DNA of 64,000 nt from Candidatus Yanofskybacteria bacterium RIFCSPLOWO2_01_FULL_39_28. Its GTDB lineage: Bacteria; Patescibacteriota; Minisyncoccia; 2-02-FULL-40-12; GWA2-44-9. The notes below the pieces were generated by a model. It had not been told where the DNA came from and did no database searches. It was given only the letters and a program-made list of their open reading frames with translations. The stretch lies in NCBI GenBank assembly GCA_001794635.1, contig MGKE01000007.1, positions 8,774 through 72,773 of the forward strand. Direction: 5' to 3'. Each line of letters begins with the position of its first letter. The first letter of the stretch is position 1. The position numbers were made by a program, and so were the translations under genes. This document shows positions 1-14,761 of this stretch, in pieces.

Positions 1-1
1 A

Positions 2-829
2 GCAAGCGGAATCGTGCTTTTGAAGGCATATGCTGACTACTACCATGGTTATAAAGATGGCGATAAGGAAGTTCGAGGATATGAAAGCCTAGTAAAAGAA
101 CTGTTAGAAAAATTCCCCGCAAGTGAAAGAATTATAGGAGAACAAAATCAAAAAGATTTTATAAAATTATATGGAGCAATTTTACGTGTGCGAAATATCC
201 TTATAACTTTTGATGAATTTGCTGGTAACGAAATCCTAACCGAACGAGATGTGCAGGATTATCACAGCATGTACATTGATATCTATAATGAATTCCGTAA
301 AGGCATAGAAGAAAAAAAAGAAAACATCAACGACGATGTAGTGTTTGAAATGGAACTTATCAAACAGATAGAGATAAATATTGACTATGTGCTCGGTCTT
401 ATCAAGAGATACCACGAAGACCATATTAAGAATCGGGAACTGTTACTTGATATTAACAAAGCGATAGATTCCAGCGTCGAGTTACGCAACAAAAAGGATC
501 TTATTAACCAATTCATTACATCTCTCGATGTTAAAGCAGCAGTTGATGAAGACTGGCAGAAATTTGTTGAAGAAAAGAAAATCGAAGAATTAGAGAAGAT
601 TATTACCGCCGAAAACCTTGATCATGATGCTACTTATGCATTTATTAAAAACGCATTTAGGGATGGGGCGGTTGCAATAACCGGCACAGCAATTTCAAGG
701 GTGTTGCCACCAGTATCTCGGTTTTCTCCAACTGGTGAACGGACCCAAAAACGAGAAGGTGTCCTGAATAAACTCACAAGTTTTTTTGAGAGATTCTTTG
801 ATATTTCTGGGGGTAAGTTTTTAGAATAA
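2..829 (+). CDS. hsdR: Type I restriction enzyme R subunit (HsdR), C-terminal fragment; 5' end lies outside the window
   Basis: The frame is open to the window edge. The helical C-terminal region (AILRVRNILITFDEF, DLINQFITSL, AFIKNAFRDG) matches my recollection of the conserved HsdR C-terminal domain. No helicase motifs fall inside the window. Confidence 0.55.
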   Translation, partial: ASGIVLLKAYADYYHGYKDGDKEVRGYESLVKELLEKFPASERIIGEQNQKDFIKLYGAILRVRNILITFDEFAGNEILTERDVQDYHSMYIDIYNEFRKGIEEKKENINDDVVFEMELIKQIEINIDYVLGLIKRYHEDHIKNRELLLDINKAIDSSVELRNKKDLINQFITSLDVKAAVDEDWQKFVEEKKIEELEKIITAENLDHDATYAFIKNAFRDGAVAITGTAISRVLPPVSRFSPTGERTQKREGVLNKLTSFFERFFDISGGKFLE

Positions 830-836
830 AATAACT

Positions 837-2396
837 ATGAAATCAATAATACTCGCAAGAGTTTCGACACAAGAGCAAATGGATGGGCAATCAATACCTG
901 CCCAGCTTGAGCGGTCCAGAGAATACCGGAAGCGTAAGGGGCTAGAACCGTGGAAAGAGTTTCAGTTTGATGAATCATCTATTAAGGACCATAGGAAAAA
1001 ATTTGAAGAAATTATCGATCTTATTAAAAGCTCAAGAGAGCGTGTTGCTTTTATCGTGGAAACAATTGATCGAATGCAACGCAGTTTCAAGGAATCGGTC
1101 TTATTGCTTGATATAATTAAGGCCGACAAAGTCGAAGTTCACTTTATTCGAGAAAACTTAATTATTGATAAGGATTCAAATAGTTCAGAGCTTTTGCGAT
1201 GGGATATGGGCGTAATGTTTGCTCGGGGCTTTGTGCTACAAATTAGTGATAATGTAAAAAGAACATTTAGGCAAAAACTGGCTAATGGAGAAGCGATAGG
1301 ACAACCTAAACTAGGATATATTTCAGCTATCAAGGATGGCAAGAAGTTTCATATACCCGATCCGGAAAAAGCACACTTTATACCAGCTATTTTTGAGCTC
1401 TATCTGCAAGGATGGTCTTTCAGGGCTATTGCTGATGAAATGTATAAAAGAGGCCTAAGAAGCAGGAATAATAAAAAGGTTTCTCAAAGCAATATTCAAA
1501 AAGTTATCAAAGACCCATTTTATTGCGGTATTATAATATCAAAGGGCAAAGAGTACCCTCATCATTACGAAAAATTGATTTCATTTGAAAAATATAGCAA
1601 GGCACAGAATTTGATGACTCGTAAAAGCAACCTTTCAACAAAGACCCGCCACAAGGTATTCGCCTTAAGTCGGCTGGTCCATTGTAAAAATTGCCACGGC
1701 CTCATATCGGCAGAACCAAAAAGGGGGCACCTCGTGTATTATAGCTGTTCTAACTATAAGAATATGTGCAAACGTCTTTATATTCGCGAGGAAGTTATGC
1801 TCAAGCCGGTCCTAAAAGCCCTGAAATCAATCCAGTTGCCACAGGAAAGAATGGATATGCTAGTAAACAGCTTAAAGCGCACCCATGAGGCAAAAAGGGC
1901 CTATCAGGAAGAAGCCACAAGCGAATTACGACAACGATACGATAAAATTCAAGCAATGAATGACCGGTTAATAGACATGCTTGCAGATGGGCGTATTACT
2001 GACGATGTATATGACAAGAAATTAAAACAATATAAAGAAGATCAAAGATCAATTGAGCTTCAATTACAAGAATATACAGATGCCGATGAGCAGTATCATA
2101 TCACGGCAAAAACAATACTATCACTAGCACAAAGGGCTTTAGAAATATTCAACCGTTCTGAAGTAACCGAAAAACAGCAATTTTTAGGGTATTTTCTTCA
2201 GAACGCTCAACTGAATGGAAGTAACCTAGAGTTTACCTTGAGAAACCCATTTAATTTGCTTGCAGAATATGCAAGCCGTCCTAACTGGCTCCCAGAACAT
2301 GACATTATTATAACCATTTTATCAGACCAAGAATACATGACCAATCTTTGGAATAAGCTCTGCTATATTAAGGAGGTGGCGAGAGTTGGAGACTAA
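837..2396 (+). CDS. Large serine recombinase (resolvase catalytic domain + recombinase domain + zinc ribbon + coiled coil)
   Basis: N-terminus IILARVSTQEQ (catalytic Ser motif), Cys cluster CKNCHG..YYSCSNYKNMC, long helical C-terminus. Starts 8 nt after the hsdR stop. Confidence 0.85.
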   Translation: MKSIILARVSTQEQMDGQSIPAQLERSREYRKRKGLEPWKEFQFDESSIKDHRKKFEEIIDLIKSSRERVAFIVETIDRMQRSFKESVLLLDIIKADKVEVHFIRENLIIDKDSNSSELLRWDMGVMFARGFVLQISDNVKRTFRQKLANGEAIGQPKLGYISAIKDGKKFHIPDPEKAHFIPAIFELYLQGWSFRAIADEMYKRGLRSRNNKKVSQSNIQKVIKDPFYCGIIISKGKEYPHHYEKLISFEKYSKAQNLMTRKSNLSTKTRHKVFALSRLVHCKNCHGLISAEPKRGHLVYYSCSNYKNMCKRLYIREEVMLKPVLKALKSIQLPQERMDMLVNSLKRTHEAKRAYQEEATSELRQRYDKIQAMNDRLIDMLADGRITDDVYDKKLKQYKEDQRSIELQLQEYTDADEQYHITAKTILSLAQRALEIFNRSEVTEKQQFLGYFLQNAQLNGSNLEFTLRNPFNLLAEYASRPNWLPEHDIIITILSDQEYMTNLWNKLCYIKEVARVGD

Positions 2397-2854
2397 TCTT
2401 GGTATTCAGCATAAGCATCGTGAGCCAATTTGTCGGCCCTTTTACCTAACACCGAATCTCTGGAATGATGAATATATGTTACGCCATCTTTGAATCTTTG
2501 CTCATATTTTTTTGCTTCATCAAATAGTGGTTTTATGTGGTCCTTTTTTATTCTATACTCCCCGTTCATCCACCTAACTACTAACTGGCTATCCATTCTT
2601 ACCTCAACATTGTATCTAGCAACGGCAACTGCTTTATCAAGAGCAAAAACCAATGCCCTAAATTCTGCTTCAGGAACAGTCATTTCTCCTAGATACTTTT
2701 TAAAATGACACTCTTCTCCTTTATAGTCTATTATTAAAACCCCACAAGCAGATTTGCCTTTGGATAACCTGTTTTTTAGATGTGCGTCTTTAATCCTACA
2801 ACAAGCATCAACTATAATCTTAGTCTTATTCATAATGACAAGATTATAGAACAA
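2393..2854 (-). CDS. RNase H type 1-like protein
   Basis: Acidic catalytic residues appear in the expected order: IIVDAC, EAEFRAL, MDSQLVV, ADKLAHDA. The true start is probably Met8 (2833), since a TATAAT lies just upstream. Convergent with the recombinase, with a 4-nt overlap at its stop. Confidence 0.75.
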   Translation of the reverse strand: MFYNLVIMNKTKIIVDACCRIKDAHLKNRLSKGKSACGVLIIDYKGEECHFKKYLGEMTVPEAEFRALVFALDKAVAVARYNVEVRMDSQLVVRWMNGEYRIKKDHIKPLFDEAKKYEQRFKDGVTYIHHSRDSVLGKRADKLAHDAYAEYQD

Positions 2855-2912
2855 TGTAGCTTTTTATCAAGACTTTTTTTATTATATTAATAGCCTATAG
2901 TATATATCATCT

Positions 2913-4619
2913 ATGAATAAGTATTCGAAAGTAACAACTTCAGGCTCAAACAACTTTGATGTTATAGTAATTAATACTATTTTTACTGTTTCCTACTTCT
3001 CATCAAAAGATGGCATAAAGACTTCCTCTAAAGACAAAGCGGATTACTTATCAAGCGTAGAGGAAGAAATAAAAAAATGCTCTGCTAAATTAAAAGATGG
3101 TGGTTTTATGTTTATATATGGCTTACCTGCCTGGCTACCCGAATATTTTAATCTCATAAGAAAAGACTTTACATTTAGATACTGGATTGCGATTGATGGT
3201 GGCCATAAAGATACATCAATAAAAAACAATATCCCCAAGAGTCACGTAGGCCTACTAATGCTATCAAAAGGAAATAAATATGGCCCATTAAATACCAAGC
3301 AGGAAAAGATTAGCTATTCGGCTTGCTTGCATTGTAGAAATAATCTTAAAGATTGGGGTGGAAAGAAACACTTGATGAACAAAAATGGAACAGCAATATC
3401 AGATGTATGGAAAGATTTTTATCATAAGAATGGCCATATTGTTGATTCTATCGGGATTAATCTCGAGTTGGTAGATTTTGATAAAACATCGATAAAAATT
3501 GACGGCAAGATAATCCCTCCTCAGATATTAGATAGGATATATAACTTAACCAATAGGATTGGCTATAGATTTGGACTCCACAATATAATCGTCCCACCTC
3601 CAAAGAGTGTTTTTAAAACACCGCCAAGTGTTGACACAAAAACCAGAGCTGCAGATTTAGACAAAGTAGTTATGGCGAATTGTATAGAAGAAATGAAAAG
3701 GCTATATAAAAGATATCCAAATGGTTGTTTTGATATTTTCTTTGCAGACCCTCCCTATAATTTAGATAAGAAATACGACAAGTATAAGGATACGAACAAT
3801 GAGACTGAATATATAAACTGGTCAAATGAATGGCTAGATTTAGGGATTAAACTCTTAAAACCGGGCGGGTCATTATTTTCCCTTAATATCCCGGAGTGGT
3901 CTCTTCATCAAGCAATTTATCTAAATGATATCGCATATTTTCAAAATTGGATTGTCTGGGATTCTATGTCAGTTCCTTTGGGCAAGATAATGCCTGCCCA
4001 TTATTCTTTATTGCACTATTCTCAAACTCCGAATGTTAAATTCTGCGGCCATAAATGGATTGATAATCCTGGTTATTGCCTAAGAGCTTCATGTATTAAA
4101 GCAAGGACGGTTTTGGGTGATGATAAGAAAGTAGTACTTGCTGATATATGGTCTGACGTTCACAGAATAAAACATAAGAAAAATAGAGATTACCATCCAT
4201 GTCAATTGCCTCATAAATTAATGGAGAGGATTATTAGCCTATTTTCAAAAGAGGGAGATTTAATATTCGACCCATTCGCCGGAGCAGGAACAACTGCTAT
4301 CGTAGCAAAGAAGCTAAATCGCCATTATTATACAACCGAAATTTCTGCGGACTATATAAATATAACAAACCGTAGATTGAAAGAAGTAGGTGAATATGGA
4401 GATATAGTTCTGCGCTCAGTTAAACACGACAACAATGGACTAACAAAAAAGAGCGTAGAATTAGTCGTACAAAAATTAGCATTAGAGCTAAGTAGGAAAC
4501 CCACCCTAGAAGAGTTGTTAAATAAAGGTAAGTTCAAGAGGACCGATTTAACAAAACTGTATGGAGATGAAAATAGGGCCTTAAAAGTAGCTAGAGTTGC
4601 TCTTACAAATAGTAATTAA
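2913..4619 (+). CDS. DNA methyltransferase, beta-class N6A/N4C family, with a degenerate N-terminal copy of its own core
   Basis: FFADPPYNL (motif IV) precedes FDPFAGAGTT (motif I). Residues ~60-190 echo ~300-420 (GGFMFIYGLPAW/GGSLFSLNIPEW, FRYWIAID/FQNWIVWD, SHVGLLML/AHYSLLHY, SDVWKDF/ADIWSDV) but lack both DPPY and FxGxG. Confidence 0.85.
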   Translation: MNKYSKVTTSGSNNFDVIVINTIFTVSYFSSKDGIKTSSKDKADYLSSVEEEIKKCSAKLKDGGFMFIYGLPAWLPEYFNLIRKDFTFRYWIAIDGGHKDTSIKNNIPKSHVGLLMLSKGNKYGPLNTKQEKISYSACLHCRNNLKDWGGKKHLMNKNGTAISDVWKDFYHKNGHIVDSIGINLELVDFDKTSIKIDGKIIPPQILDRIYNLTNRIGYRFGLHNIIVPPPKSVFKTPPSVDTKTRAADLDKVVMANCIEEMKRLYKRYPNGCFDIFFADPPYNLDKKYDKYKDTNNETEYINWSNEWLDLGIKLLKPGGSLFSLNIPEWSLHQAIYLNDIAYFQNWIVWDSMSVPLGKIMPAHYSLLHYSQTPNVKFCGHKWIDNPGYCLRASCIKARTVLGDDKKVVLADIWSDVHRIKHKKNRDYHPCQLPHKLMERIISLFSKEGDLIFDPFAGAGTTAIVAKKLNRHYYTTEISADYINITNRRLKEVGEYGDIVLRSVKHDNNGLTKKSVELVVQKLALELSRKPTLEELLNKGKFKRTDLTKLYGDENRALKVARVALTNSN

Positions 4620-5589
4620 ATATCTCCTTAAGTAGCTCTAGGTTTTTGTAATTGACGGCATAATCACAAGAGTTCACAAACCTGCCAACATCATTTTTGC
4701 CCCTAGCCATCCAGCCCGCTCCATCAATAAAATTAATAAATAGCACATCTTTTTTATTGGCCGCATTGTATCTCTTTATCGCAGAGAATAACGCATCGTT
4801 GGCGTCTCCTTTTTTAGTTTGACCAGAGGCAGTGGTTTTTGTATAGCTGCTTTCAATCAATATTTTCGGGTCTTTTTTATTAGGAATTATTAAATCTATC
4901 TTCGGGTTTCTTTCAGCTCCTGTGGTTGTTCTCTGGTAGTAACTTTCTAAAAGTTCTAGAGAACCCACTTCATATTTACCGTCTGGCACAAGTTTGCCTA
5001 TAATCTCTCTTTCTACAAATGTTCCTACCTTTTGACTAAATCTGCCTGAATATTTATCTTCCAACATAAGCCTCAATTTTGAAGTGTCTTTTTTAAGCGA
5101 GGATAAATTATTTATTACAAAACGTCTAAGGATTATCGGCTCATCAGCAAGTATTTCCATTAATAGTTTATCTTTGTGACCGCTTGTAAATATCCGAGAG
5201 AAAACTTTTATTAATTCCGGGTCTTCATTTATGCTTTCGAGATCGGCAACAGAAAGACCATATTTTTCATTAATAGCCGGAAGAATATAATTTTTTATCT
5301 TTTCATTTGATATGCCCGTGACCGCAAGGATTATAGCCCATCCAATATTTTCTTCTTTTGCTCCTTCGTTCATCATCAGGTCATATTCAGGCCGTCTCTT
5401 TATCGTTAAATCTATTACCTTTTTGAAATTATTTTCTGGGTTATCATCAAACTCTAATTTAGAAAAATCCTCTATAATGCTTTTAATAAAATTATCAAAT
5501 TGAGACGCCAAATCGGGCATTGGTATTGCCGGAGAAAGGGATTGATAGAATTCACCTAGAGATAGTCTCTGTGGTTTATTGTCGGTCAT
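4603..5589 (-). CDS. Putative type II restriction endonuclease (DpnII/MboI-like C-terminal core)
   Basis: Convergent with the methyltransferase and overlapping it by 17 nt. KIDLIIP..ILIESSYTKTTASGQ..FINFIDGAGW resembles, from memory, DpnII RFDFVI..LYLIEVNFYSGSGS..MWITDGQGW. Confidence 0.45.
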   Translation of the reverse strand: MTDNKPQRLSLGEFYQSLSPAIPMPDLASQFDNFIKSIIEDFSKLEFDDNPENNFKKVIDLTIKRRPEYDLMMNEGAKEENIGWAIILAVTGISNEKIKNYILPAINEKYGLSVADLESINEDPELIKVFSRIFTSGHKDKLLMEILADEPIILRRFVINNLSSLKKDTSKLRLMLEDKYSGRFSQKVGTFVEREIIGKLVPDGKYEVGSLELLESYYQRTTTGAERNPKIDLIIPNKKDPKILIESSYTKTTASGQTKKGDANDALFSAIKRYNAANKKDVLFINFIDGAGWMARGKNDVGRFVNSCDYAVNYKNLELLKEIFNYYL

Positions 5590-5624
5590 TTTAACCGAAC
5601 TTTAGCAGAATTAGCCGTGATTTG

Positions 5625-5652
5625 CAAAACAAAAAAGCAGGTTGTGCCTGCT
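5625..5652 (-). terminator. Intrinsic terminator after the 543-aa gene
   Basis: Stem AGCAGG/CCTGCT with a 5-nt loop, followed on the minus strand by TTTTTTGTTTTG. Confidence 0.65.
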
Positions 5653-5733
5653 CTTTGTTTTCAGAGATATTTTGTTATTAACTAATCAAAATATTCTTCC
5701 TGGTTTTATTTTAGGAAAGTCATGCGTAAGTTT

Positions 5734-7365
5734 TTAATTACTCTTTATTATTTCAATTTTTTTAACCCAAGTTTCAACATATCCTCCGTCATTATAGATA
5801 AATTCGTCTCCGTCTTTTTCTTCACACATAACATTATCAACCGTAGCCGTTACTTCAAATATAGTATTTCTATCTCTATCGTTGTCGCCTATATTCCCGA
5901 ATACATCAAAAATATATTTAACCCAGCTAGAGTCCCATTCCTCACCCCATTTTCGCAAACCTTCCTCATCATTAGAAAAATCTTCTTTTGAGCGAGGGTC
6001 ATCGGCGCTAGCCAGGAATGTTCCCCAGAAATGACCGTGTTTCTCGTGCGATCCAACAGGATGTTCCTTATCAATCACCCAAAACCTGATACCGCTCGTG
6101 TGAGCGTTGGGAGAAACCACCGCATTCCATGTTATCTCTTTGTCTCTGTATAAACTCCCGATATTACACCAAGTGAAAACAACATCGTTAAAAGTAGGAT
6201 TTACCTTGATTACGCCGAGAAGATTTAAAAGATGTTGAACTTCGGACAGATTATTAAACCACTCCAAGTCCTGTTTTACTTTTTCGTCTATATTTTCGTT
6301 GAATTCTAAAATCAAAATCTCGGCAAGCGCTTGTTTCTTGCCAACGTCAGATCCAGCGGCAACTTTGGCAAGTGGCTGATAAAACTCCTTTAAAAAATCG
6401 GCGTACATACAAAAAAGCCAGGAATTGTGGTTGCACTCATTTCTTTCTTGTGTAAATAACGGAGCGTTAATGCCATTGATATTCGACAACCTGAAATCGG
6501 AATTTCCCGAGATGTACGTAAAATTACTCGCCGCAGAGTCCCATTGGTAACGCATGGATACCTTGTCTGATATAAGTTCTTCGTCCCCAAATTCGTATAA
6601 ACGTCTGAAGTCAAAATCTATATAAGAATTTCCGTCAATGTTCTTAAAAGATTTTTCAACCGAGAAACTGCTTCCTAACCACCCAGAGTCATTAAAGATT
6701 CCCCAGCCAGAGCCAAAACCGCCGATTGAAGGATATTCAAGGACTTTTTTTAATTCTAGTCTGTCTTTTTCTATCCAATACCAAGTGTCTACGTATTCAC
6801 TCATATCAGAACCACTATTGCCGAGTTTTGTTGAAACAAACCACTGATTATTCAATTTATCTGAAACAATTTCATAACTTGGACCGTGTCTTTTACCGTT
6901 GCTAACAATGAGGTCAGCCAAGAATTCATCATTATAAAAAAAGTAGTAATTTGACGTACTCATTACGCCCATTATGGCGGCAAGGTTTACGTCGTTTACT
7001 TTCTTATATTCTATTATCGCATCAAATTCAGAATTAGGATTTCTTATGTCATTCCAAACATAGACGACATTTATATAATCTCCTATCTTTTCGGCGCTTT
7101 TACAGATAACAAATGCCTCAAGCGGTTCTTTCGGCCAGTTATCTAACGCTTCATTGGGATATTTGTATTCATTACAAAACTTCTTTCCCGCTTCACGATG
7201 CTGGGCGTACTCTTTATCCCAATCAACTTTCTCCGACTCATTGTCATCCAGCGACCACTCCTCATTTAATGGAGCGCTGTTTGTTCTAAATAAAAACAGG
7301 TTAATTAAAACCAAAAGCCCCATTACTAATACCACAATCCAATTTTGTTTTAGAAAATTTAACAT
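5734..7365 (-). CDS. Hypothetical membrane-anchored protein (543 aa)
   Basis: Long ORF with an N-terminal hydrophobic helix (WIVVLVMGLLVLINLFLF) and a Trp/Asp/Asn-rich remainder. I recognise no family. Confidence 0.8.
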   Translation of the reverse strand: MLNFLKQNWIVVLVMGLLVLINLFLFRTNSAPLNEEWSLDDNESEKVDWDKEYAQHREAGKKFCNEYKYPNEALDNWPKEPLEAFVICKSAEKIGDYINVVYVWNDIRNPNSEFDAIIEYKKVNDVNLAAIMGVMSTSNYYFFYNDEFLADLIVSNGKRHGPSYEIVSDKLNNQWFVSTKLGNSGSDMSEYVDTWYWIEKDRLELKKVLEYPSIGGFGSGWGIFNDSGWLGSSFSVEKSFKNIDGNSYIDFDFRRLYEFGDEELISDKVSMRYQWDSAASNFTYISGNSDFRLSNINGINAPLFTQERNECNHNSWLFCMYADFLKEFYQPLAKVAAGSDVGKKQALAEILILEFNENIDEKVKQDLEWFNNLSEVQHLLNLLGVIKVNPTFNDVVFTWCNIGSLYRDKEITWNAVVSPNAHTSGIRFWVIDKEHPVGSHEKHGHFWGTFLASADDPRSKEDFSNDEEGLRKWGEEWDSSWVKYIFDVFGNIGDNDRDRNTIFEVTATVDNVMCEEKDGDEFIYNDGGYVETWVKKIEIIKSN

Positions 7366-7405
7366 TTAACAATCAGGTTCAATCATAATATAACGATAGA
7401 CCGTT

Positions 7406-7516
7406 TTATTGCCAAAAAAATATTTTTAGCTCATAGGCAACTCCAACTACTAGAACTAAAATGGCCCCCAACATAAAACCTATTATTAAAAGTGCTTTTC
7501 TCGTTTCATCGTCCAT
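7406..7516 (-). CDS. Possible 36-aa single-pass membrane peptide
   Basis: ATG..TAA ORF below the track threshold: MDDETRKALLIIGFMLGAILVLVVGVAYELKIFFWQ. It sits between two co-oriented genes. Confidence 0.25.
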   Translation of the reverse strand: MDDETRKALLIIGFMLGAILVLVVGVAYELKIFFWQ

Positions 7517-7522
7517 ATTTTT

Positions 7523-7984
7523 TTACTTTTTCTTTGCTGTTTCAAATATGTTGTCAATTCGCCCAACAACCGCCTCACTACAGTGTATGTCGCTATCTTT
7601 GGATTCATAGGCCGTTATACCTCTTAAACGAAGAGCATGTTGAGCTTTATCAATCCATTCTTCCAAAGGTTGACTTAATGAGCAACCACCAGAGCCACAA
7701 TAACTTGCCAGAAGATATCCTATATTTGTACATATTTGCTCGTCATTTAGTTCTTCGGGTTCGCTGGAGAGAATTTTTCTATCCTCCATCTCAAAGAGTC
7801 GTGCCCGTTTTTCGCCCATGTCATCAAAGATAATGTCACCAGATACATACTCAGCATTACTAACAGGAGCAGAAGGTGTTTTGGAATTATCAACAAAAAG
7901 AAAAATATTCACCCCTATTAAGATAAAGATAAAAACAAAAACCGTTTTATTTACGTGTTTTAACTTATTGAAAATTAGTTTCAT
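7523..7984 (-). CDS. Hypothetical membrane-anchored/secreted protein (153 aa)
   Basis: N-terminal hydrophobic segment VFVFIFILIGVNIFLF. Overlaps the TerS-like gene by 20 nt, suggesting translational coupling. Confidence 0.7.
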   Translation of the reverse strand: MKLIFNKLKHVNKTVFVFIFILIGVNIFLFVDNSKTPSAPVSNAEYVSGDIIFDDMGEKRARLFEMEDRKILSSEPEELNDEQICTNIGYLLASYCGSGGCSLSQPLEEWIDKAQHALRLRGITAYESKDSDIHCSEAVVGRIDNIFETAKKK

Positions 7985-8390
7985 TTGATTTTTCTAATTT
8001 TTTCTCGTTTTCAACTCGGTCATATAGTTCCCCCAAGTCAAAAGGTTTTCCTGTTATGCTAACATCGGACTCATTCTTGTCTTTCCAGCTATAATTATTT
8101 TTAAGATTAAATATTGCACCAGCCACATGCTTACCTGAAAACAAGAATTCTTCTGCATATCTTTCACAAAGTGCTTTGGCTCTTTTTATGGTGCCAAAAA
8201 ATTCTTCGTCTTTTGAGTAGTTTAAAAGTGTCTGTCTGTTTACGCCAAGGCCTACTGCCAAACCACTCATGGTTAATGGTTTACCACTTTTTTCGCATCC
8301 ATCAAAATATTCCGAGATTGCCCTTTCTAACGCCTCGCTAGTTTTAAACTTTAATGGTCTGCCGACTTTGTTGTTTGGCACATTGTCCAT
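7965..8390 (-). CDS. Phage terminase small subunit-like (TerS) DNA-binding protein
   Basis: GRPLKFKT..LTMSGLAVGLGVNRQTLLNY..FFGTIKRAKALCERYAEE..GAIFNLKNNYSWKDK is the typical N-terminal HTH plus FxLKNxxxWKDK pattern of small terminase proteins. No TerL gene is adjacent. Confidence 0.7.
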   Translation of the reverse strand: MDNVPNNKVGRPLKFKTSEALERAISEYFDGCEKSGKPLTMSGLAVGLGVNRQTLLNYSKDEEFFGTIKRAKALCERYAEEFLFSGKHVAGAIFNLKNNYSWKDKNESDVSITGKPFDLGELYDRVENEKKLEKSNETNFQ

Positions 8391-8545
8391 AAGTTAATTA
8401 TAAGTGCCATTCAAAAGATTAAAACCAATGGCAAGACATAACCTTTAAATGTCTAACAACAAAGTTCCATCACTGTTTTTAAAATACCTGTTTTTGCCGT
8501 CTAACCTAGGCGAGCTTAAGAGGTAGTCCCCGAAGTGGTAACAAA

Positions 8546-9118
8546 TTACCTTTTGGACGTATTCTTATAAATTTCAACCACTTCTGATAATCCACTTTCG
8601 CCCTCGGTCCAATCCATAGCCCAGAGGGACCTATCAAATTCTCTCAACGAGGAGCAGTACTTCTTCCAAACACCTTTGCAGATATCTACATAATTGAAAT
8701 AATCTTCTGGTTTAAAATTTTCAGCTTTTGAAGGTAATTTTCTTTCCGCACATTTTTGCTTCTCTAGTTCCATTAAAGAATTTAAGGCCCTATAATCTAA
8801 AACCGTAAATTCTTCTGGATAGCAGACAGTTAAAATAGCCGAAGCAATGGCAATACCTACTCCTTTTATACCCAATAATTTCTTCAGTTTTTCCATTCTG
8901 TCTGTAGCCAGCCACAATTCCTTACTAAGTTCTTCTATGGATTGACCGTTCCATTTTGAAGCAATTTTTATACCAGAGGGCTTTCTTTTCCAAAAGACAA
9001 TGGCAAAAAACTCATTCCCTGTTAGACAGTGGTTTCTTTGAAAATTATTATAAACTTCTTTAAATAAATAACTTTCTAATTCGGAGGGGTAATATTTTAG
9101 ATAGTCCCGCAGTTCCAT
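8546..9118 (-). CDS. Hypothetical protein with a helix-hairpin-helix-like segment
   Basis: LLGIKGVGIAIASAILTVCYPEEFTVLDYR resembles an HhH/glycosylase-like motif. I place the start at MELRDYL (9118); the upstream 47 codons of the track ORF run through a GC-rich structured intergenic region. Confidence 0.6.
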   Translation of the reverse strand: MELRDYLKYYPSELESYLFKEVYNNFQRNHCLTGNEFFAIVFWKRKPSGIKIASKWNGQSIEELSKELWLATDRMEKLKKLLGIKGVGIAIASAILTVCYPEEFTVLDYRALNSLMELEKQKCAERKLPSKAENFKPEDYFNYVDICKGVWKKYCSSLREFDRSLWAMDWTEGESGLSEVVEIYKNTSKR

Positions 9119-9323
9119 AAAGCAATGCAGGGAATGTGTAAAAACACAAAGCCCGCTACTAGGAAGAGGTCTTACGACCATCTCTGCCAAAGTTTCCCCT
9201 GGCAACGCGATGAACGCCCTAATAACGGGGTCTCTATGTTCATCGCGATTACTGACCATGCCCTGCAGAATCTGCCGAGTTTAGGCCTTTATTTATTATT
9301 AAATTGTGGTTTAATTCTACTAC

Positions 9324-10145
9324 ATGAAAAACAAATATTCAATACAATCAACTTCAAGCGTAGATTTGAAAAAAGAGCTGGAAGATTTAGATACAGAAAC
9401 GCTAGAAAAACTCAGTGCAATTTTAAAAACCAAGGACTCTCTTTTAAAGACAAAAGGGCATAAAAAGTTAATCAATTACTTTCGGGAAACATCCGACAAG
9501 GAAGTTATACAAACTAAAATAAAAAGTTTTAGAAAAAAGTATGGAATACCACTAAACGGTTTTATTCTAAACCCCGATGACTACAAAGAAATACCAGAGA
9601 GTTGGTGGCACAAAACAGGGAAATTTATAAAATCATATGAACTTAATAAGGATGTATGCGACATACTTAAAATATATCGCTTGAGTAAGGATTGGGTCTT
9701 ATTTTTAACAGCATATCTCTTTTATAATAAATTAGTTATTGATGGAGCCGAGAATAGGTACAACTTACTCCAAGCAGTTGATATCAGTTCAAATAAAAAT
9801 AAAATCGCTGGTATAGACCCAGCCTTTTATCCCGTAGCTGTCTGTATCAGTACTTATGCGTCAAAAAGGGACATATTGGATTTTATAGGAAGGACTTACA
9901 ATCCCTTGATTTCGTCATTGCAAACAGAATACAAAAGTAAGGAAGTAAAAATTGGCAAATTCAGAACCAAAAAACCTGAAATTCAAGCAAGAAATAAATT
10001 TATTTATAACCATCGCCACTTGCCGTTTAAAGAAATAGTGAGCATGGTGAGCAGTGAGTTTCCTGGCAAGATAACAAACACTATTGACGAAGGTAGTGTG
10101 GGTAAAATAATTTCTCTGGAGAAGAAAAGACGAAAAGAAGTGTAG
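9324..10145 (+). CDS. Hypothetical protein (273 aa), first gene of the rightward module
   Basis: Long Lys-rich ORF, followed by a hairpin ACCCTGA/TCAGGT plus a T-run near 10184-10207. No recognisable motif. Confidence 0.7.
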   Translation: MKNKYSIQSTSSVDLKKELEDLDTETLEKLSAILKTKDSLLKTKGHKKLINYFRETSDKEVIQTKIKSFRKKYGIPLNGFILNPDDYKEIPESWWHKTGKFIKSYELNKDVCDILKIYRLSKDWVLFLTAYLFYNKLVIDGAENRYNLLQAVDISSNKNKIAGIDPAFYPVAVCISTYASKRDILDFIGRTYNPLISSLQTEYKSKEVKIGKFRTKKPEIQARNKFIYNHRHLPFKEIVSMVSSEFPGKITNTIDEGSVGKIISLEKKRRKEV

Positions 10146-10208
10146 TACAGAAAATTCTTATATTTTAACTTCCATTAAGGATACCCTGATTAAAAGTCAG
10201 GTATTTTT

Positions 10209-10346
10209 ATGTCCGAAAACAAAGAACAACAAAAAGAGATAGACCAAGTCGCAGAAAAATTGGCTGAGTTGTTTTTACATCAGATTTATCAGGACCTAAA
10301 TTTTCCAAAGAATAAAGACGTTAAAAACGAGCAATATGAACGATAA
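10209..10346 (+). CDS. Possible 45-aa protein
   Basis: ATG ORF (MSENKEQQKEIDQVAEKLAELFLHQIYQ...) whose stop overlaps the next start by 11 nt, which is typical mobile-element gene packing. Confidence 0.3.
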   Translation: MSENKEQQKEIDQVAEKLAELFLHQIYQDLNFPKNKDVKNEQYER

Positions 10347-10683
10347 AGAATCAAAATTATATAGATATTCAAGGGTTTATTGGGATGTGAGTGCAAGATT
10401 TAAGTTAAAACCTATTGAAATCCTGCTTATGTCTTATATTCATAGCCTTTCAACAAGAGGCAGGTGTTGGGCTTCCCAAAAGGGAATGGCAAAAATTATG
10501 GGGACGACTGAAACCACAGTTAACCAAAAGATTAAAAAATTAGTTGAAATGGATTTAATAGAAAAAGTTTCCTGTAATGAAGACCAAAAAAAGATGGAAT
10601 ATAAAACAACTGAAATCTGGCGAGAACTGGTTTGGGAGATAGAGCAATTTCTTAGTGAAAGACATAAAGAAAAAGCCCGATAG
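10336..10683 (+). CDS. Winged-helix DNA-binding protein
   Basis: CWASQKGMAKIMGTTETTVNQKIKKLVEMDLIEK is an HTH plus wing pattern. Confidence 0.65.
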   Translation: MNDKESKLYRYSRVYWDVSARFKLKPIEILLMSYIHSLSTRGRCWASQKGMAKIMGTTETTVNQKIKKLVEMDLIEKVSCNEDQKKMEYKTTEIWRELVWEIEQFLSERHKEKAR

Positions 10684-10937
10684 GGTTAAAAGAGAAGAGC
10701 CCTCGTCATTAAAAAACTTAATACAATAATAAATAATAAATTAATAATTAAATAATATTAAAAATAAAATCAGCTTTTAAAAGCTGATGATAGAGGTTTT
10801 ATTCTTTTAAACAGGAACATATAATACGCACGAACATGATTTTCCCTCATAGGTCACAATTAAAAGGCAGCCCGCAGATTTCTTATAAACGGAAGTCATG
10901 TTCGCGGGTTGCCTTTTGGTTGTAACCAAATCATTAT

Positions 10938-12518
10938 ATGAATAAAAAAAATGCAATTGGATATTGCCGTGTCAGCACCGATGAACAAGCCAAACACGGT
11001 CTTTCTTTAGATGTTCAGGAAGAATCCTGTAAAATGGCCATCCAAAGTGATGGATATGAACTACTAAAAATAATCAGGGACGAAGGTAAGAGTGGCGGAA
11101 ACCTTAATAGAGCTGGGATGAGGGAATTAATATCGCTGGTCATAAATAAAAAAATAGATGCCATTTATACTATAAGCGGTGACCGCCTAAACAGAAATAC
11201 CCTGGAATACATGCAGTTGAGAAAGTTGCTACGAGAAAATGATATTGATTTGAAATACATTAACCAAGCAAACACTGATGACTCGGCCATGGGAAGAACT
11301 ATGGACACGGTTCTAGCTTCCTTTAACGAATTCCAGAGATTGCAAACATCAGAAAAAGTTAAAAAGGTTTCAGCCGCTAGGGTTGAAGCTGGTTATTTCC
11401 CTACGGGAGCCCCTATCGGCTACAAAAACGATATTAATCCAGACCCAAATGCCGACAGACTGGCGAAAAAGGTTATAGTTCCCGATGCAATGGCTCCACT
11501 GGTAACAGAGGCCTTTAAATTCTTTGCTACGGGCAATTTTAATGGTTACGACCTTTGTAATTTACTAAACCAGAAAGGATTAAGGACAAGGTACGGTAAG
11601 CCGATGCTACCAAGCCGATTCTATGAACTATTAAAAAATAGAATATATCTTGGAGAGGTTCATCATGGCAAAAATCATAACCCTAACGGAAAGCACAAGC
11701 CCCTTATAGATAAGGCGACATTTGACAGGGTCCAGTCCATTCTAGACGGCCACAATAAGCATGCCTGCAGACGTAGGAAGTATTGTTGGCTCTTGGGCGG
11801 CTTTGTATACTGTGCCAGGCATGGAAAGCGATATACAGCCGAGTGGCATCTAAACAAAAAGTTGGCTTATTACCACTGCACCAACAGGAATGGGTGCGGA
11901 AAATACATTGAGACCAACAAATTGGAGGCCTTAATAGCCGATAAGTTTAAAGACTTAGAATTTAACCCTGAGTTTATTGATAAGATAATAGAAAAGGCAA
12001 AAACGGCTTTTTATGCAAGCAGAGATGAGTATGATGCCAAAAGACAGGCCTTGGTAAACCAGAAAACGGCTTTTGAGGCGAAATTAAAATCAGCTGAAGA
12101 TAAGTTGTTCTCGGAAATATTGTTAAGTGATGACTATAAGAGGATAAGATATGAAGTTAAAACAGAAATTGAAAGCATAGAAGAACAATTAGCGCATCTA
12201 TCTCAAAGGCAAGAGGTCAAAGTGGACATAGCAAAAGAAATTCTGTCATTTACGAAAAATATTTACCTGACTTACAAAAAAGCTCCGCCTCATATTAAAA
12301 GGCATTACTTGAGTCTGTTTTGGGACAGATTTGAGATCCAAGATGGAGTTATAATAAAATCCGTTTCCTCTATACTGTTCAACCATCTTTTAGATCTGGA
12401 ACAGATCTACCTTAAAAATCAAAACCCCCAGATTACTGGGGATTCTGACGTTCTTATAAATATAGCAACAGAGCTCCGCGGCCAGGACTCGAACCTGGAA
12501 CCATCTCCTTACACATGA
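10938..12518 (+). CDS. Large serine recombinase (integrase); its 3' end is read from the tRNA-Asn 3' exon
   Basis: AIGYCRVSTDEQ catalytic motif, recombinase domain, Cys cluster YCARHGKRY..YHCTNRNGC, coiled coil. The last ~45 nt (ELRGQDSNLEPSPYT) are the complement of the tRNA T arm and acceptor, and the stop lies 7 nt inside the intron. Confidence 0.85.
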   Translation: MNKKNAIGYCRVSTDEQAKHGLSLDVQEESCKMAIQSDGYELLKIIRDEGKSGGNLNRAGMRELISLVINKKIDAIYTISGDRLNRNTLEYMQLRKLLRENDIDLKYINQANTDDSAMGRTMDTVLASFNEFQRLQTSEKVKKVSAARVEAGYFPTGAPIGYKNDINPDPNADRLAKKVIVPDAMAPLVTEAFKFFATGNFNGYDLCNLLNQKGLRTRYGKPMLPSRFYELLKNRIYLGEVHHGKNHNPNGKHKPLIDKATFDRVQSILDGHNKHACRRRKYCWLLGGFVYCARHGKRYTAEWHLNKKLAYYHCTNRNGCGKYIETNKLEALIADKFKDLEFNPEFIDKIIEKAKTAFYASRDEYDAKRQALVNQKTAFEAKLKSAEDKLFSEILLSDDYKRIRYEVKTEIESIEEQLAHLSQRQEVKVDIAKEILSFTKNIYLTYKKAPPHIKRHYLSLFWDRFEIQDGVIIKSVSSILFNHLLDLEQIYLKNQNPQITGDSDVLINIATELRGQDSNLEPSPYT

Positions 12519-12724
12519 TCCATAACTTTCGTAATGGGGTGGACTATCTTATGTCCCCAAAGGGACCCGGGTATATAGTCTCTACACATTTATCACTTGC
12601 GTGAATTTAGCTCGGGATTGCCAGTTTAAAGGTTTCCCCGAATTAGCCCGGTTTTTCATCGCGCATTTCTGCGCGAAGCTGCCTTACTCGACAGGGAGCC
12701 GCTCTACCATTGAGCTACCGCGGA
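12474..12724 (-). tRNA. tRNA-Asn(GUU) split by a group I intron (exons 12691-12724 and 12474-12511); CCA not encoded
   Basis: The joined exons give a 72-nt cloverleaf: acceptor UCCGCGG/CCGCGGA, D arm GCUC-AAUGGUA-GAGC, anticodon loop CUGUUAA, variable UGGUU, T arm CCAGG-UUCGAGU-CCUGG, discriminator G. Close to bacterial tRNA-Asn sequences as I recall them. Confidence 0.85.
12512..12690 (-). ncRNA. Group I intron, IC3-like, 179 nt, no internal ORF
   Basis: P1 CUGU|C:GGCAG with U.G at the splice site; P2 UCGCGCA-GAAA-UGCGCGA; AAUUCGGGGAAACC..GGCAAUCCCGAGCUAAAUUC; P6 UCAC-GCAA-GUGA; GUGUAGAGACUAU; P3 CCGGG/CCCGG; P8 GUCCC-UUUG-GGGAC; P7' AUAGUC; P9 CCAUUAC-GAAA-GUUAUGG; terminal G. Confidence 0.85.
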
Positions 12725-13562: not shown

Positions 13563-14045
13563 ATGAAAAAAGTATCAACAAATTTTTTAAGATTTGTGAT
13601 CTTTCTCCTGGGAATAGGTGTTCTTGCTCTGTGTATTTTTGCCTTGCCGGGGGCGTGGAAAGGAGGCTCGGAAGAATTTCCTACGGCCAGTTGTGTAGTC
13701 CTTCTGATTGTTATGGGTATCTACATAACGGCTGCGCCTTTCCTTATTCTTTTATGGCAGGCCCTTAAACTATTGAACTATATTGACCATAATAAAGCTT
13801 TCTCGGATTTGTCTGTAAAAGCATTAAGGAATATAAAATATTGCGCCAGTATTATTGCTGTCGTGTATGTTGTATTTGTACCCCTTTTGATTCCGGTTGC
13901 GGAGGCAGACGACGCTCCAGGCCTTGTACCAATAGGACTTGTGATATCTTTCATTCCGATTGCGGTCGCGATCTTTGCCGCTGTTCTTCAGAGATTATTT
14001 CAAAACGCAATAGACATAAAATCTGAAAATGATTTAACGGTTTAA
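13563..14045 (+). CDS. DUF2975-like multi-pass membrane protein
   Basis: Four hydrophobic segments. Paired with the adjacent YozG-like HTH gene, a known association. Paralogous to 14273..14761 (ALKLLNYIDHNKAFSDLSVKALRNIKYCA versus AFKLLGYIGQNEVFSLSSVKALRTIKYCA). Confidence 0.75.
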   Translation: MKKVSTNFLRFVIFLLGIGVLALCIFALPGAWKGGSEEFPTASCVVLLIVMGIYITAAPFLILLWQALKLLNYIDHNKAFSDLSVKALRNIKYCASIIAVVYVVFVPLLIPVAEADDAPGLVPIGLVISFIPIAVAIFAAVLQRLFQNAIDIKSENDLTV

Positions 14046-14057
14046 AATATAGAAACT

Positions 14058-14261
14058 ATGGCAATTATAATCAACATTGACATAATGCTGGCTAAAAGAA
14101 AAATGAGCGTCACTGAACTTGCGGAGAAAGTCGGGATAACAATGGCCAACATTTCTATATTGAAAAATGGAAAAGCAAAAGCAATTCGCCTTTCCACGCT
14201 TGAGGCAATTTGCAAGGCTTTGGAATGTCAGCCCGGAGATATCTTGGAATATAAAAAATAA
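14058..14261 (+). CDS. XRE/Cro-type HTH transcriptional regulator (YozG-like, 67 aa)
   Basis: MSVTELAEKVGITMANISILKNGKAKAIRLSTLEAICKALECQPGDILEY is the canonical short HTH_26-type sequence. Confidence 0.85.
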   Translation: MAIIINIDIMLAKRKMSVTELAEKVGITMANISILKNGKAKAIRLSTLEAICKALECQPGDILEYKK

Positions 14262-14272
14262 ATAAAAAAATT

Positions 14273-14761
14273 ATGGAACGAGCTTCAATAATATTTCTAA
14301 AGACAGTAATTGTACTTATCGGAATCGTAGCACTTGTAGTCATGATTCGGTTTCCCTTGACCGAAGGGAGGGCCGTAAACTTAGACCTGTTTAGTATTTA
14401 CTCTGATCCGTTCATCATCTATGGGTACCTGGCGTCTATCCCGTTTTTTATTGCACTTTACCAAGCGTTTAAATTACTCGGATACATCGGACAAAATGAA
14501 GTATTCTCATTGAGCTCTGTGAAAGCTTTAAGGACTATAAAATATTGCGCAATCATATTAAGCATCTCAATTGTGATGGCAGCAATATACATAAGGATAT
14601 CTTGTTGCACAGTAGCTGAAGTAGACGGTGGAGACGATCCGGCGGGTTTTATTGCCGTAAGTATTGTGGCTACTTTTATTTCTATCGTAATCGCCACCGC
14701 GGCGGCGATGTTTGAACGGATTTTCCAAAATGCCCAAATAAAATTGGATGGGGTGAATTAG
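14273..14761 (+). CDS. DUF2975-like multi-pass membrane protein (paralog)
   Basis: Same topology and conserved central motif as 13563..14045. Confidence 0.75.
   Translation: MERASIIFLKTVIVLIGIVALVVMIRFPLTEGRAVNLDLFSIYSDPFIIYGYLASIPFFIALYQAFKLLGYIGQNEVFSLSSVKALRTIKYCAIILSISIVMAAIYIRISCCTVAEVDGGDDPAGFIAVSIVATFISIVIATAAAMFERIFQNAQIKLDGVN

Follow-up and report, generated by a model that had tools for sequence, protein, structure and literature searches.

A serine-integrase island at the 3' end of a tRNA-Asn gene in a Candidatus Yanofskybacteria genome

The 3' ends of tRNA genes are classically targeted by tyrosine integrases. Here, we describe a 64,000-nt stretch of DNA (hereafter the window) from Candidatus Yanofskybacteria bacterium RIFCSPLOWO2_01_FULL_39_28 (a very small groundwater bacterium of the Patescibacteria, or candidate phyla radiation, CPR; contig MGKE01000007.1, positions 8,774 to 72,773), in which positions 1-12479 represent, with a probability of roughly 0.8, the integrase-proximal part of an integrative element that occupies a core at tRNA-Asn, is present in or absent from distantly related hosts, and was inserted by its own 526-aa large serine integrase. 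In the literature searched, we found no description of such large-serine-recombinase elements at tRNA genes, in line with a first-pass annotation of the window, made from the sequence alone, which had called the use of a large serine recombinase at a tRNA unusual.

The integrases of phiC31, Bxb1 and A118 and the CcrA/B recombinases have the same Resolvase domain with the RVST serine, recombinase domain, zinc ribbon and short core as the 526-aa integrase; the known large serine integrases differ from it in that here the open reading frame (ORF) crosses the core, with a tail that would differ between the integrated and excised states, the target is a tRNA 3' end, and the family is limited to Patescibacteria in our scan. 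Staphylococcal cassette chromosome (SCC) islands are similar in their insertion at the 3' end of an essential conserved gene, their restriction-modification (R-M) cargo and, as regards relatives of the present element, the helicase next to the recombinase. However, the target here is tRNA-Asn and not rlmH, two recombinases lie 8.5 kb apart and do not form a ccrAB operon, and the best NCBIfam matches of the integrase, CcrB and CcrA, were far under their cut-offs (CcrB, 122.6 bits vs 900). Phage-inducible chromosomal islands (PICI), including the staphylococcal SaPI, and the PICI-like element (PLE) of Vibrio cholerae, described in PMC9638900 as a satellite using a large serine recombinase, share with this locus a terminal integrase, a divergent control region, a replication gene and a small terminase (TerS) without a large terminase (TerL) or structural genes. 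Prochlorococcus tycheposons integrate at tRNA genes in streamlined genomes lacking conjugation, carry replication modules and cargo, and include PICI-like forms (bioRxiv 10.1101/2020.12.28.424599). They resemble the present island in flanking-DNA capture and in island accretion beside a tRNA, but they use tyrosine recombinases and partial tRNA copies of ~40 nt, whereas here we found a serine integrase, a 7-bp core and a LOOT RNA. Tycheposons and SCC-type islands are the best-fitting functional analogues overall, yet defining features of both are missing.

Occupied and empty alleles at tRNA-Asn

Individual contig loci from genomes and metagenomes are given L-numbers, with L002 being the window's sequence, L001 that of host B and L003 that of host C; L010 is the host-B island contig and L011 the window's island contig, in which window position 1 is L011 9165. 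One genome per species was scanned for the integrase family, giving 57 loci with relatives at 32-59% identity, and metagenomes were scanned with the 38-nt tRNA 3' exon as query, giving 78 loci, 70 of which could be scored for an intron. Proteins were searched against Pfam, PHROG, PADLOC and NCBIfam profiles, RNAs against Rfam, and viral contigs in IMG/VR (2.9 million). The exact 526-aa protein, annotated in the Candidatus Yanofskybacteria metagenome-assembled genome (MAG) GCA_001794285.1, was present on 17 contigs, three of which (L001, L002 and L003) had differing right flanks.

From window position 938 through the tRNA 3' exon, the window was 99.98% identical to L001 and 99.93% identical to L003 at the nucleotide level, and this identity collapsed ~20 nt inside the intron that splits the tRNA gene, with 58 nt common at the tRNA side. 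Contigs L010, L011 and L012 were 100% identical to the window, and L010 matched L011 at 100% over 21.56 kb. By comparison, rpoD and dnaG in the flanks of these hosts were only 64-74% identical, indicating that the hosts are distantly related. Empty alleles were found for both of the other hosts, L078 for host B (flank 100% identical over 5,532 nt) and L089 for host C (flank 100% identical over 3,702 nt). Empty and occupied alleles diverge right after ...CCGCGGAGC, identity stopping at ...GCGGAGC, beyond which the empty sites continue into native trailers, CAAGTAGG... in host B and CAAATAGG... in host C. In the window's own sample, the syntenic locus L095 is also empty, with a DEAD helicase upstream (81% identity) and an ECF-sigma (extracytoplasmic function) operon downstream (83.6% over 2,028 nt); its ECF-sigma start codon lies ~3 nt past the tRNA end, and left-flank homology begins at the tRNA GCGGAG. 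The same empty arrangement was seen in L151 at 70% identity. The element is thus mobile, being polymorphic for presence and absence in the same chromosomal background in two other hosts. The first-pass annotation's reading of the region as an integrated mobile element is thereby borne out, as the same DNA is present in or absent from otherwise identical chromosomes and relatives with empty sites exist (L078, L089, L095 and L151). Chimeric assembly is an unlikely source of the three right-flank contexts, since the shared 58 nt are shorter than the assembler k of 141 and exact empty alleles exist.

We mapped the attachment (att) core by comparing occupied and empty alleles. Apart from the 7-bp GCGGAGC, attB, the proximal junction and the distal scar have no sequence in common, and the alignments place the crossover at the final 6 nt of the tRNA and the 1 nt that follows, in agreement with the earlier suggestion that the recombinase ORF adjoins or overlaps an att site in the tRNA 3' end. 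The element resupplies the core bases, and tRNA-Asn is kept intact. No long direct repeats or repeats of the tRNA 3' exon were found in the window, as would be expected for a serine integrase. The integrase itself has a catalytic domain (PF00239, 2.7e-29, residues 6-152) with the motif CRVSTDEQ carrying the nucleophilic serine, and a C-terminal half matching PF07508 (1.9e-10) and PF13408 (1.4e-06), in which the Cys/His columns are invariant in an alignment of 29 sequences. The ORF described in the first-pass annotation is therefore that of a large serine recombinase, and its last 45 nt consist of 38 nt of exon complement and 7 nt of intron.

The core falls within integrase codons 512-514 (E-L-R), so that residues 1-514 are element-encoded, while the last 12 residues (GQDSNLEPSPYT) and the stop are encoded by host tRNA/intron DNA. 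A functional reading of the exon-encoded C-terminus did not hold, as the tail lies beyond the conserved part of the protein. Because the last ~40 columns of the integrase family alignment are unconserved, we regard the tail as probable host read-through after integration and not as a functional fusion. If the partner arm is the one that begins at L011 1999, the excised integrase would end ...ELRLQNAFRILDWPKISEDFKYFHSIPAFQQFI, and attP is predicted to read ...AATATAGCAACAGA GCTCCGC CTACAGAACGC.... In both predicted arms (L011 ~2003-2018 and window ~12441-12454), ATTCTGA(nn)(G)CGTTCT occurs in inverted orientation, 4 and 18 nt from the core. Integration would proceed by attP x attB recombination at the tRNA-Asn 3' end, catalysed by the 526-aa integrase, whose C-terminal tail would change upon excision.

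The target is a tRNA gene on the minus strand (12474-12724) that harbours a group I intron (Rfam RF00028, 60.5 bits). It was not found by ARAGORN at default settings, and with the -i option was found but labelled Thr(tgt), a label that we rejected in favour of Asn(GUU) on the grounds of ligated exons in intronless genes and P1 covariation. Specifically, 23 intronless tRNA-Asn genes of related metagenomes consist of both exons joined (...GGCUCCCUGU|UAAGGAG...; junction ...CUGU|UAAGG...), and at intron position +1 the base after CUGU pairs with the base preceding the guide GCAG (C-G, G-C and A-U), which sets the U.G splice pair after anticodon base 35. The intron matches the group I model, has U.G at the 5' splice site and a terminal G, and its exons join into a normal tRNA. 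An intron of 178-533 nt was present at the same point in 47 of the 70 scorable tRNA-Asn loci, the other 23 being intronless with the same 3' exon. Since relatives of the element occupy such intronless genes, the intron is incidental to the element, and the significance that the first-pass annotation had attached to an intron-containing tRNA falls away.

Several further observations concern this tRNA. The group I introns found in tRNA-Asn genes with an identical 3' exon (L077-L154, groundwater metagenomes) are of at least four sequence types. A GIY-YIG ORF in L160 was considered as intron-borne and rejected, since its tRNA has no intron and the ORF lies upstream of the tRNA. In L085, two tRNA-Asn copies face each other at a distance of 1.2 kb. 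Two other junctions recur after the same tRNA-Asn end, 'GCGGCCATTCTGGTGTG...' in L080, L085, L094, L099, L120, L125 and L154, and 'CA..GTCGTGA...AATCGTGGC..AGAATCAGTG' in L081, L086, L088, L096, L103, L104 and L115, the latter going with relatives of a 519-aa recombinase described below, so that this tRNA-Asn end, with at least two such further junctions, is a hotspot for several types of element. Just past the tRNA, at window positions 13563-14761, we found a tandem arrangement of DUF2975, XRE-type HTH_26 and DUF2975 with a 35-nt internal repeat, which is absent from the syntenic L095.

A LOOT RNA and the wider element family

The 200-nt structured region that the first-pass annotation had placed between the two divergent gene units, at 9119-9323, was found to hold a full-length LOOT RNA (Rfam RF03000; Weinberg et al. 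2017, PMC5737381) at 9166-9287 on the minus strand, scoring 65.2 bits against a gathering score of 46.4 over model positions 1-121. Seven loci were the first tested with Rfam, and in each of them LOOT lay on the strand opposite to int, 1.7-3.4 kb upstream of it; a model of our own (R1) scored the window copy at 86.8 bits. With a covariance model built from these seven sequences and the window's, eight in all, LOOT was found in 33 of the 57 family loci and in 31 of 32 close relatives having upstream sequence, as well as in L160-L167, and in none of seven phage contigs. The helices are those of the published motif (PMC5737381), and they covary here: in an alignment of 33 sequences, 97.2% of pair cells were canonical (31-43% in slid controls) and 31 of 36 pairs were doubly changed, although the alignment was fitted to the model and is thus biased toward pairing. 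Beyond the Rfam model, the RNA has its own promoter and conserved extensions, with a sigma-70-like promoter ending 22-29 nt ahead of the model start in ~29 of 36 LOOT loci, a 5' motif ACAAyUGAAUA, and a 3' motif GGGCUUUUUG forming a short hairpin followed by a U-run. L161 has two copies (8013-8133 and 13806-13922) and two serine recombinases, and probably represents two neighbouring elements.

The first gene past LOOT starts 20-70 nt downstream and belongs to different families in different elements, which argues against a gene-specific riboswitch and for an element-level RNA heading a cargo or late operon. Satellite phage P4 uses a small structured immunity RNA, CI. The likeness to LOOT, also a small structured RNA at an operon start in the control region of an integrative, putatively replicative element, is an analogy that can do no more than suggest a mechanism. 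We prefer to read LOOT as a cis-acting leader or attenuator, or as an immunity RNA similar to P4 CI, and a role as replication primer is also possible. In the LOOT literature covered, the motif is assigned no function or genomic context, whereas in our data it goes with a single kind of mobile element.

Records of the integrase family mostly have titles of Patescibacteria lineages, with several titled otherwise, for instance as Gammaproteobacteria, Flavobacteriaceae or Bathyarchaeia MAGs. In 41 of the 57 loci, the integrase reading frame terminates at or inside a tRNA gene of convergent orientation, and four further loci end ahead of the stop. The 41 targets comprise 17 tRNA-Asn (with or without intron), 12 tRNA-Lys(UUU), 10 tRNA-His(GUG), one tRNA-Phe and one tRNA-Arg; four of the 17 Asn targets were miscalled Thr by ARAGORN, as in the window. 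The common layout consists of a variable leftward arm, LOOT, a rightward gene of 200-310 aa from heterogeneous families, small ORFs, a replication slot, the integrase and the tRNA. The replication slot holds an AAA_25 RepA/DnaB-like helicase, a winged-helix gene (as in the window) or a gene for a 450-556-aa protein. Among 148 leftward-arm proteins, defence genes were among the commonest recognisable Pfam families, including C5/N6 methylases, Mrr, ResIII, Eco57I, GmrSD, HEPN_Swt1 and AEP-TOTE, with HEPN_AbiU2 in L161, and capsid, portal and large terminase were absent from the 25 most frequent Pfam/PHROG families. We considered the 190-aa and 273-aa proteins flanking LOOT in the window as a family-wide core and rejected them, because LOOT-flanking genes vary by family between members. 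Islands that bear a serine integrase and LOOT and target tRNA ends thus form a conserved and widespread class, apparently undescribed.

Gene content, extent and the lone small terminase

The features of the island and its target are listed in Table 1.

Table 1. Features of the integrase-proximal island and the tRNA-Asn target in the window
Feature	Position	Strand	Basis or remark
Island portion inside the window	1-12479	.	100% identity L010/L011/L012; empty alleles L078, L089, L095, L151
Type I restriction enzyme R subunit, C-terminal part (cargo)	14-829	+	PF12008 1e-66
Second large serine recombinase, 519 aa	837-2396	+	Pfam Resolvase/Recombinase/Zn_ribbon; phrog_95
RNase H-like protein (RVT_3)	2393-2854	-	PF13456 1.9e-14; phrog_531; NCBIfam RNase HI models
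Type II N6/N4 DNA methyltransferase (cargo)	2913-4619	+	PF01555 1e-51; PADLOC MTase_II 6e-79
Type II restriction endonuclease, BanI/DpnII-like (cargo)	4603-5589	-	PF24447, PF04556
Intrinsic-terminator-like hairpin, bidirectional, ending the leftward operon	5632-5656	-	Left limit in the first-pass annotation
543-aa protein, N-terminal hydrophobic segment; recurrent assembly break	5734-7365	-	No Pfam, PHROG, PADLOC or NCBIfam match
36-aa hydrophobic peptide ORF	7406-7516	-	ORF call
153-aa protein, N-terminal hydrophobic segment	7523-7984	-	No Pfam/PHROG match
Small terminase TerS (GP3_package), no adjacent TerL	7965-8390	-	PF16677 3e-18, 66.4 bits vs 29.4; phrog_606 3e-24
190-aa Ogg2-like HhH-GPD protein	8546-9118	-	Profile vs PDB sequences, 6.9e-06 to 3e-04
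LOOT transcription unit	9136-9342	-	Promoter-like TTGAAT-17-TAGAAT 9342-9314; core 9287-9166; 3' motif GGGCUUUGUGUUUUU 9165-9136
273-aa protein, first gene of the rightward operon; possible C-terminal helix-turn-helix	9324-10145	+	Orphan family
45-aa ORF, kept in sister elements	10209-10346	+	tblastn: L160, L162, L164, L165
Winged-helix protein (HTH_36/DnaD_N), replication-gene slot	10336-10683	+	Pfam; PHROG replication-initiator families
A+T-rich 65-nt stretch, hairpin (10769-10788) and imperfect inverted repeat with ~50-nt arms (10826-10927)	10706-10927	.	Between the winged-helix gene and int
Large serine integrase, 526 aa	10938-12518	+	Resolvase + Recombinase + Zn_ribbon_recom; phrog_95 at 7e-83
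7-bp core, common to attB, attR and the distal junction	12473-12479	.	GCTCCGC on +, GCGGAGC in tRNA sense; tRNA nt 68-73 + 1
tRNA-Asn(GUU) 3' exon, left half of attB	12474-12511	-	Exon comparison with intronless genes
Group I intron, between anticodon nt 35 and 36	12512-12690	-	Host feature outside the element; RF00028 60.5 bits and splice sites
tRNA-Asn(GUU) 5' exon	12691-12724	-	Host DNA

We found that the island is much larger than the ~7 kb, ending at a terminator near 5625, that had been proposed from the sequence of the window. The island runs at least 9.2 kb past the left edge of the window, and its left end lies outside. Two GCTCCGC cores on the plus strand, one at L011 1992-1998 and one at window 12473-12479, are 19,645 bp apart; homology to the ECF-sigma side of L095 resumes at L011 1998, no att core or tRNA remnant was found near 5625, and what host B has or lacks is a unit of at least 21.6 kb. 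L010 is identical to L011 across the internal core and through the 1,998 nt of ECF-sigma block that the locus covers, and this block bears no relation to the DNA native to the downstream side in hosts B and C, indicating that host B gained a unit of at least 21.6 kb with the ECF-sigma DNA as a passenger. In our reading, the internal core is a scar left when the element formerly resided in an L095-like genome, after which flanking DNA was captured; the alternative is accretion with a second element using the 519-aa recombinase. At the far left, the efflux adaptor gene (L010/L011 1-465, minus strand, and beyond) encodes 357 aa in host B, 437 aa in the window contig and 592 aa in L095, and these differing lengths suggest that the true left end may lie within it. 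Four to five assemblies have contigs whose ends cluster within ~90 nt, at ~870-950 nt to the left of L011:1. Contigs of several independent assemblies also break in the 543-aa gene (window ~5893-6003 and 7161-7188) and in hsdR (L011 ~7350-7630), which suggests variation at the population level.

To the left of the window, the island contains a full hsdR, an hsdM-S fusion, an excisionase-like HTH_17 gene (phrog_66), a 372-aa ORF and a 1.3-kb non-coding stretch that includes a tRNA-Sec-like gene. This gene (L011 2535-2635, minus strand, ~6.5 kb left of the window) resembles tRNA-Sec or allo-tRNA, with a 9-bp acceptor, a long variable arm and the anticodon CCA; at 29.5 bits against a gathering score of 47 (RF01852), it was the sole Rfam match in the gene-less 1.3 kb, and further structured-looking non-coding DNA surrounds it (L011 2380-3270). 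Inside the window, the 519-aa recombinase lies 8.5 kb from the integrase and shares 22% identity with it (BLASTP); relatives at 30-45% identity occur beside tRNA-Asn in other contigs (tblastn: L086, L096, L103, L106 and L126), none of which has LOOT. The 543-aa, 153-aa and 372-aa proteins had no Pfam or PHROG matches, the 543-aa and 372-aa proteins also none in NCBIfam, and the methyltransferase was the sole PADLOC match among ten island proteins.

Several gene calls of the first-pass annotation were upheld, namely the terminator closing the leftward unit (hairpin 5632-5656), the winged-helix protein in the rightward unit (HTH_36 and DnaD_N at 10336-10683), the small terminase, which survived profile searches (PF16677 and phrog_606), and the HhH-like protein (HhH, helix-hairpin-helix), which gave distant matches to Ogg2-type profiles. 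The last, of 190 aa, belongs to a Patescibacteria family matching Ogg2-type glycosylases. The pLDDT (predicted local distance difference test) score of its AlphaFold2 model was 95.6, and its top Foldseek matches were all Ogg/OGG1 but weak (E >= 0.06; template-modelling score 0.45-0.49). Its Asp is invariant (D108), and at the position of the Schiff-base Lys it has Ala (GVGIAIAS), a replacement by which the protein is predicted not to be a bifunctional lyase. The 273-aa protein has 667 cluster representatives in 50% identity clusters and an AlphaFold2 pLDDT of 89.3, with no match in Pfam, the PDB (sequence or fold) or BFVD and no recognisable repressor fold. The region at 10706-10927, between the winged-helix gene and int, may be an origin or an int control region.

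As had been noted from the ORFs, the island lacks phage structural genes: Pfam and PHROG searches of its proteins gave no match to capsid, portal, tail, lysis or large terminase. Relatives of TerS at 69-70% identity occur on other LOOT contigs (L162 and L164-167) in the same position, past the gene downstream of LOOT, and again without TerL. In L162, the intervening gene is a homologue of the 190-aa protein and the integrase is 70% identical, whereas in L164 and L165 the intervening gene encodes an unrelated 228-aa protein and the integrase fragment is ~65% identical. A 64-kb phage contig, L168, has a TerS relative at 53% identity followed by a 492-aa TerL-sized gene and a portal gene. Of the PICI-like satellite layout in the first-pass annotation, one part stands, in that there is an integrase without structural or TerL genes and a packaging-hijack gene, TerS, of the island's own. 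The other part does not: the island is at least 21.6 kb where PICIs are typically ~10-15 kb, int stands at the end of the rightward operon after the replication slot and not beside a master repressor, the target is a tRNA, and TerS is not family-wide. No interference or capsid-remodelling genes were recognisable in the island. Since this member and its nearest sisters keep TerS without TerL, capsid or portal, hijacked packaging by a helper phage would be the likeliest route of transfer, though we propose such satellite behaviour only tentatively.

Competing explanations and significance

In the explanation that we favour, the integrase would insert the element at tRNA-Asn as outlined above, and the excised element would replicate as a circle through the slot upstream of int, which holds the winged-helix gene here and an AAA_25 helicase in relatives. 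LOOT, which has a conserved promoter of its own and heads the leftward operon, would be the regulatory RNA of the element, and the leftward arm would be exchangeable cargo, here two R-M systems. TerS may mediate transfer by hijacking helper-phage packaging. The ECF-sigma/efflux fragment of at least 2 kb beyond the internal scar would be captured flanking DNA or part of an accreted element of the 519-aa recombinase. Several points weigh against this explanation. It leaves the second recombinase without a role. Neither the predicted attP junction nor the integrase family was found in IMG/VR, and no circular contig, excised circle or attP junction was present among the fetched loci, which also contained no distal junction for hosts B and C. 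The P arm behind the predicted attP may be a fossil, as identity passes the internal core into the ECF-sigma block. No recombination directionality factor was identified for the integrase, although, to our knowledge, those of serine integrases are not recognisable by homology. The function of LOOT is one that we purely infer. Finally, none of the wider family's 57 genome loci carries TerS, no helper phage was identified, and no packaged form is known.

A composite origin, compatible with the favoured explanation, falls somewhat short of even odds in our judgement. Here, the element of the 526-aa integrase and LOOT would have accreted or fused in tandem with a second element of the 519-aa recombinase, carrying the type I R-M genes, the 372-aa ORF and the excisionase-like HTH gene. 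The two recombinases are merely 22% identical, relatives of the second lie beside tRNA-Asn elsewhere without LOOT, the island has a single LOOT, and the empty site of host B already holds a fragment of a gene similar to that of the 519-aa recombinase next to the tRNA; however, there is no core or tRNA-end scar at the 3' end of the 519-aa gene, whose stop is overlapped by the convergent RNase H-like gene, and the sole internal scar lies further left, at L011 1992-1998. The recent spread could instead reflect natural transformation or generalised transduction of a larger fragment followed by homologous recombination, with the tRNA exon as the crossover. Such a process would account for host-B/window identity passing the internal core into ~2 kb of ECF-sigma/efflux DNA, and for four or five assemblies ending within ~90 nt of each other left of L011:1. 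We consider it unlikely, as only 58 nt are common at the tRNA side and hosts ~70% identical elsewhere offer a poor substrate, the DNA found natively downstream in hosts B and C shows no relationship to the ECF block, and the junction lies at the same 7-bp core in three hosts and in the fossil scar, beside an integrase with family-wide geometry.

The self-contained ~7-kb PICI-like satellite (5625-12724) of the first-pass annotation, in which the genes to the left would be chromosomal or a separate island, is very unlikely. It agrees with the apparent size of several family members (7-10 kb; L161), with the terminator closing the leftward operon, and with the recurrence of TerS, HhH gene, LOOT, regulator, winged-helix gene and int as a block in L162 and L164-167. 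However, neither an att-like core nor a remnant of a tRNA occurs near 5625. The whole stretch between the tRNA and at least L011:1 is 100% identical across hosts with ~70% identity in housekeeping genes, and it is missing as one block from the empty alleles. Short contigs of other samples run unbroken through hsdR, the 519-aa recombinase, the R-M genes and the 543-aa gene. Least probable of all is a decayed prophage that kept int and terS by chance: although TerS and several PHROG-matching genes are phage-like, copies of at least 99.9% identity in divergent hosts together with empty alleles point to recent mobility, all ORFs look intact, the layout free of structural genes is kept in dozens of genomes, and the integrase family is absent from the 2.9 million viral contigs.

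For the wider group, we raise the possibility, less likely than not, that phylum-wide replicative islands of this kind, with large serine recombinases at tRNA 3' ends, might move much of the defence pool of Patescibacteria, which have no known conjugation, with LOOT as an immunity or attenuation switch and the TerS-bearing branch as the first CPR phage satellites. The serine integrases described here show natural specificity for tRNA ends (Asn, Lys, His, Phe and Arg), and their attB/attP pairs may be mined for genome engineering. The orphan LOOT RNA, without an assigned function since 2017, gains a concrete and testable genomic role. Because the alleles are in public groundwater metagenomes, excision, circularisation and linkage to a helper phage can be tested by read mapping. 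In CPR bacteria, about whose mobile elements little is known, such islands may be a means of horizontal gene transfer and of turnover of defence genes.

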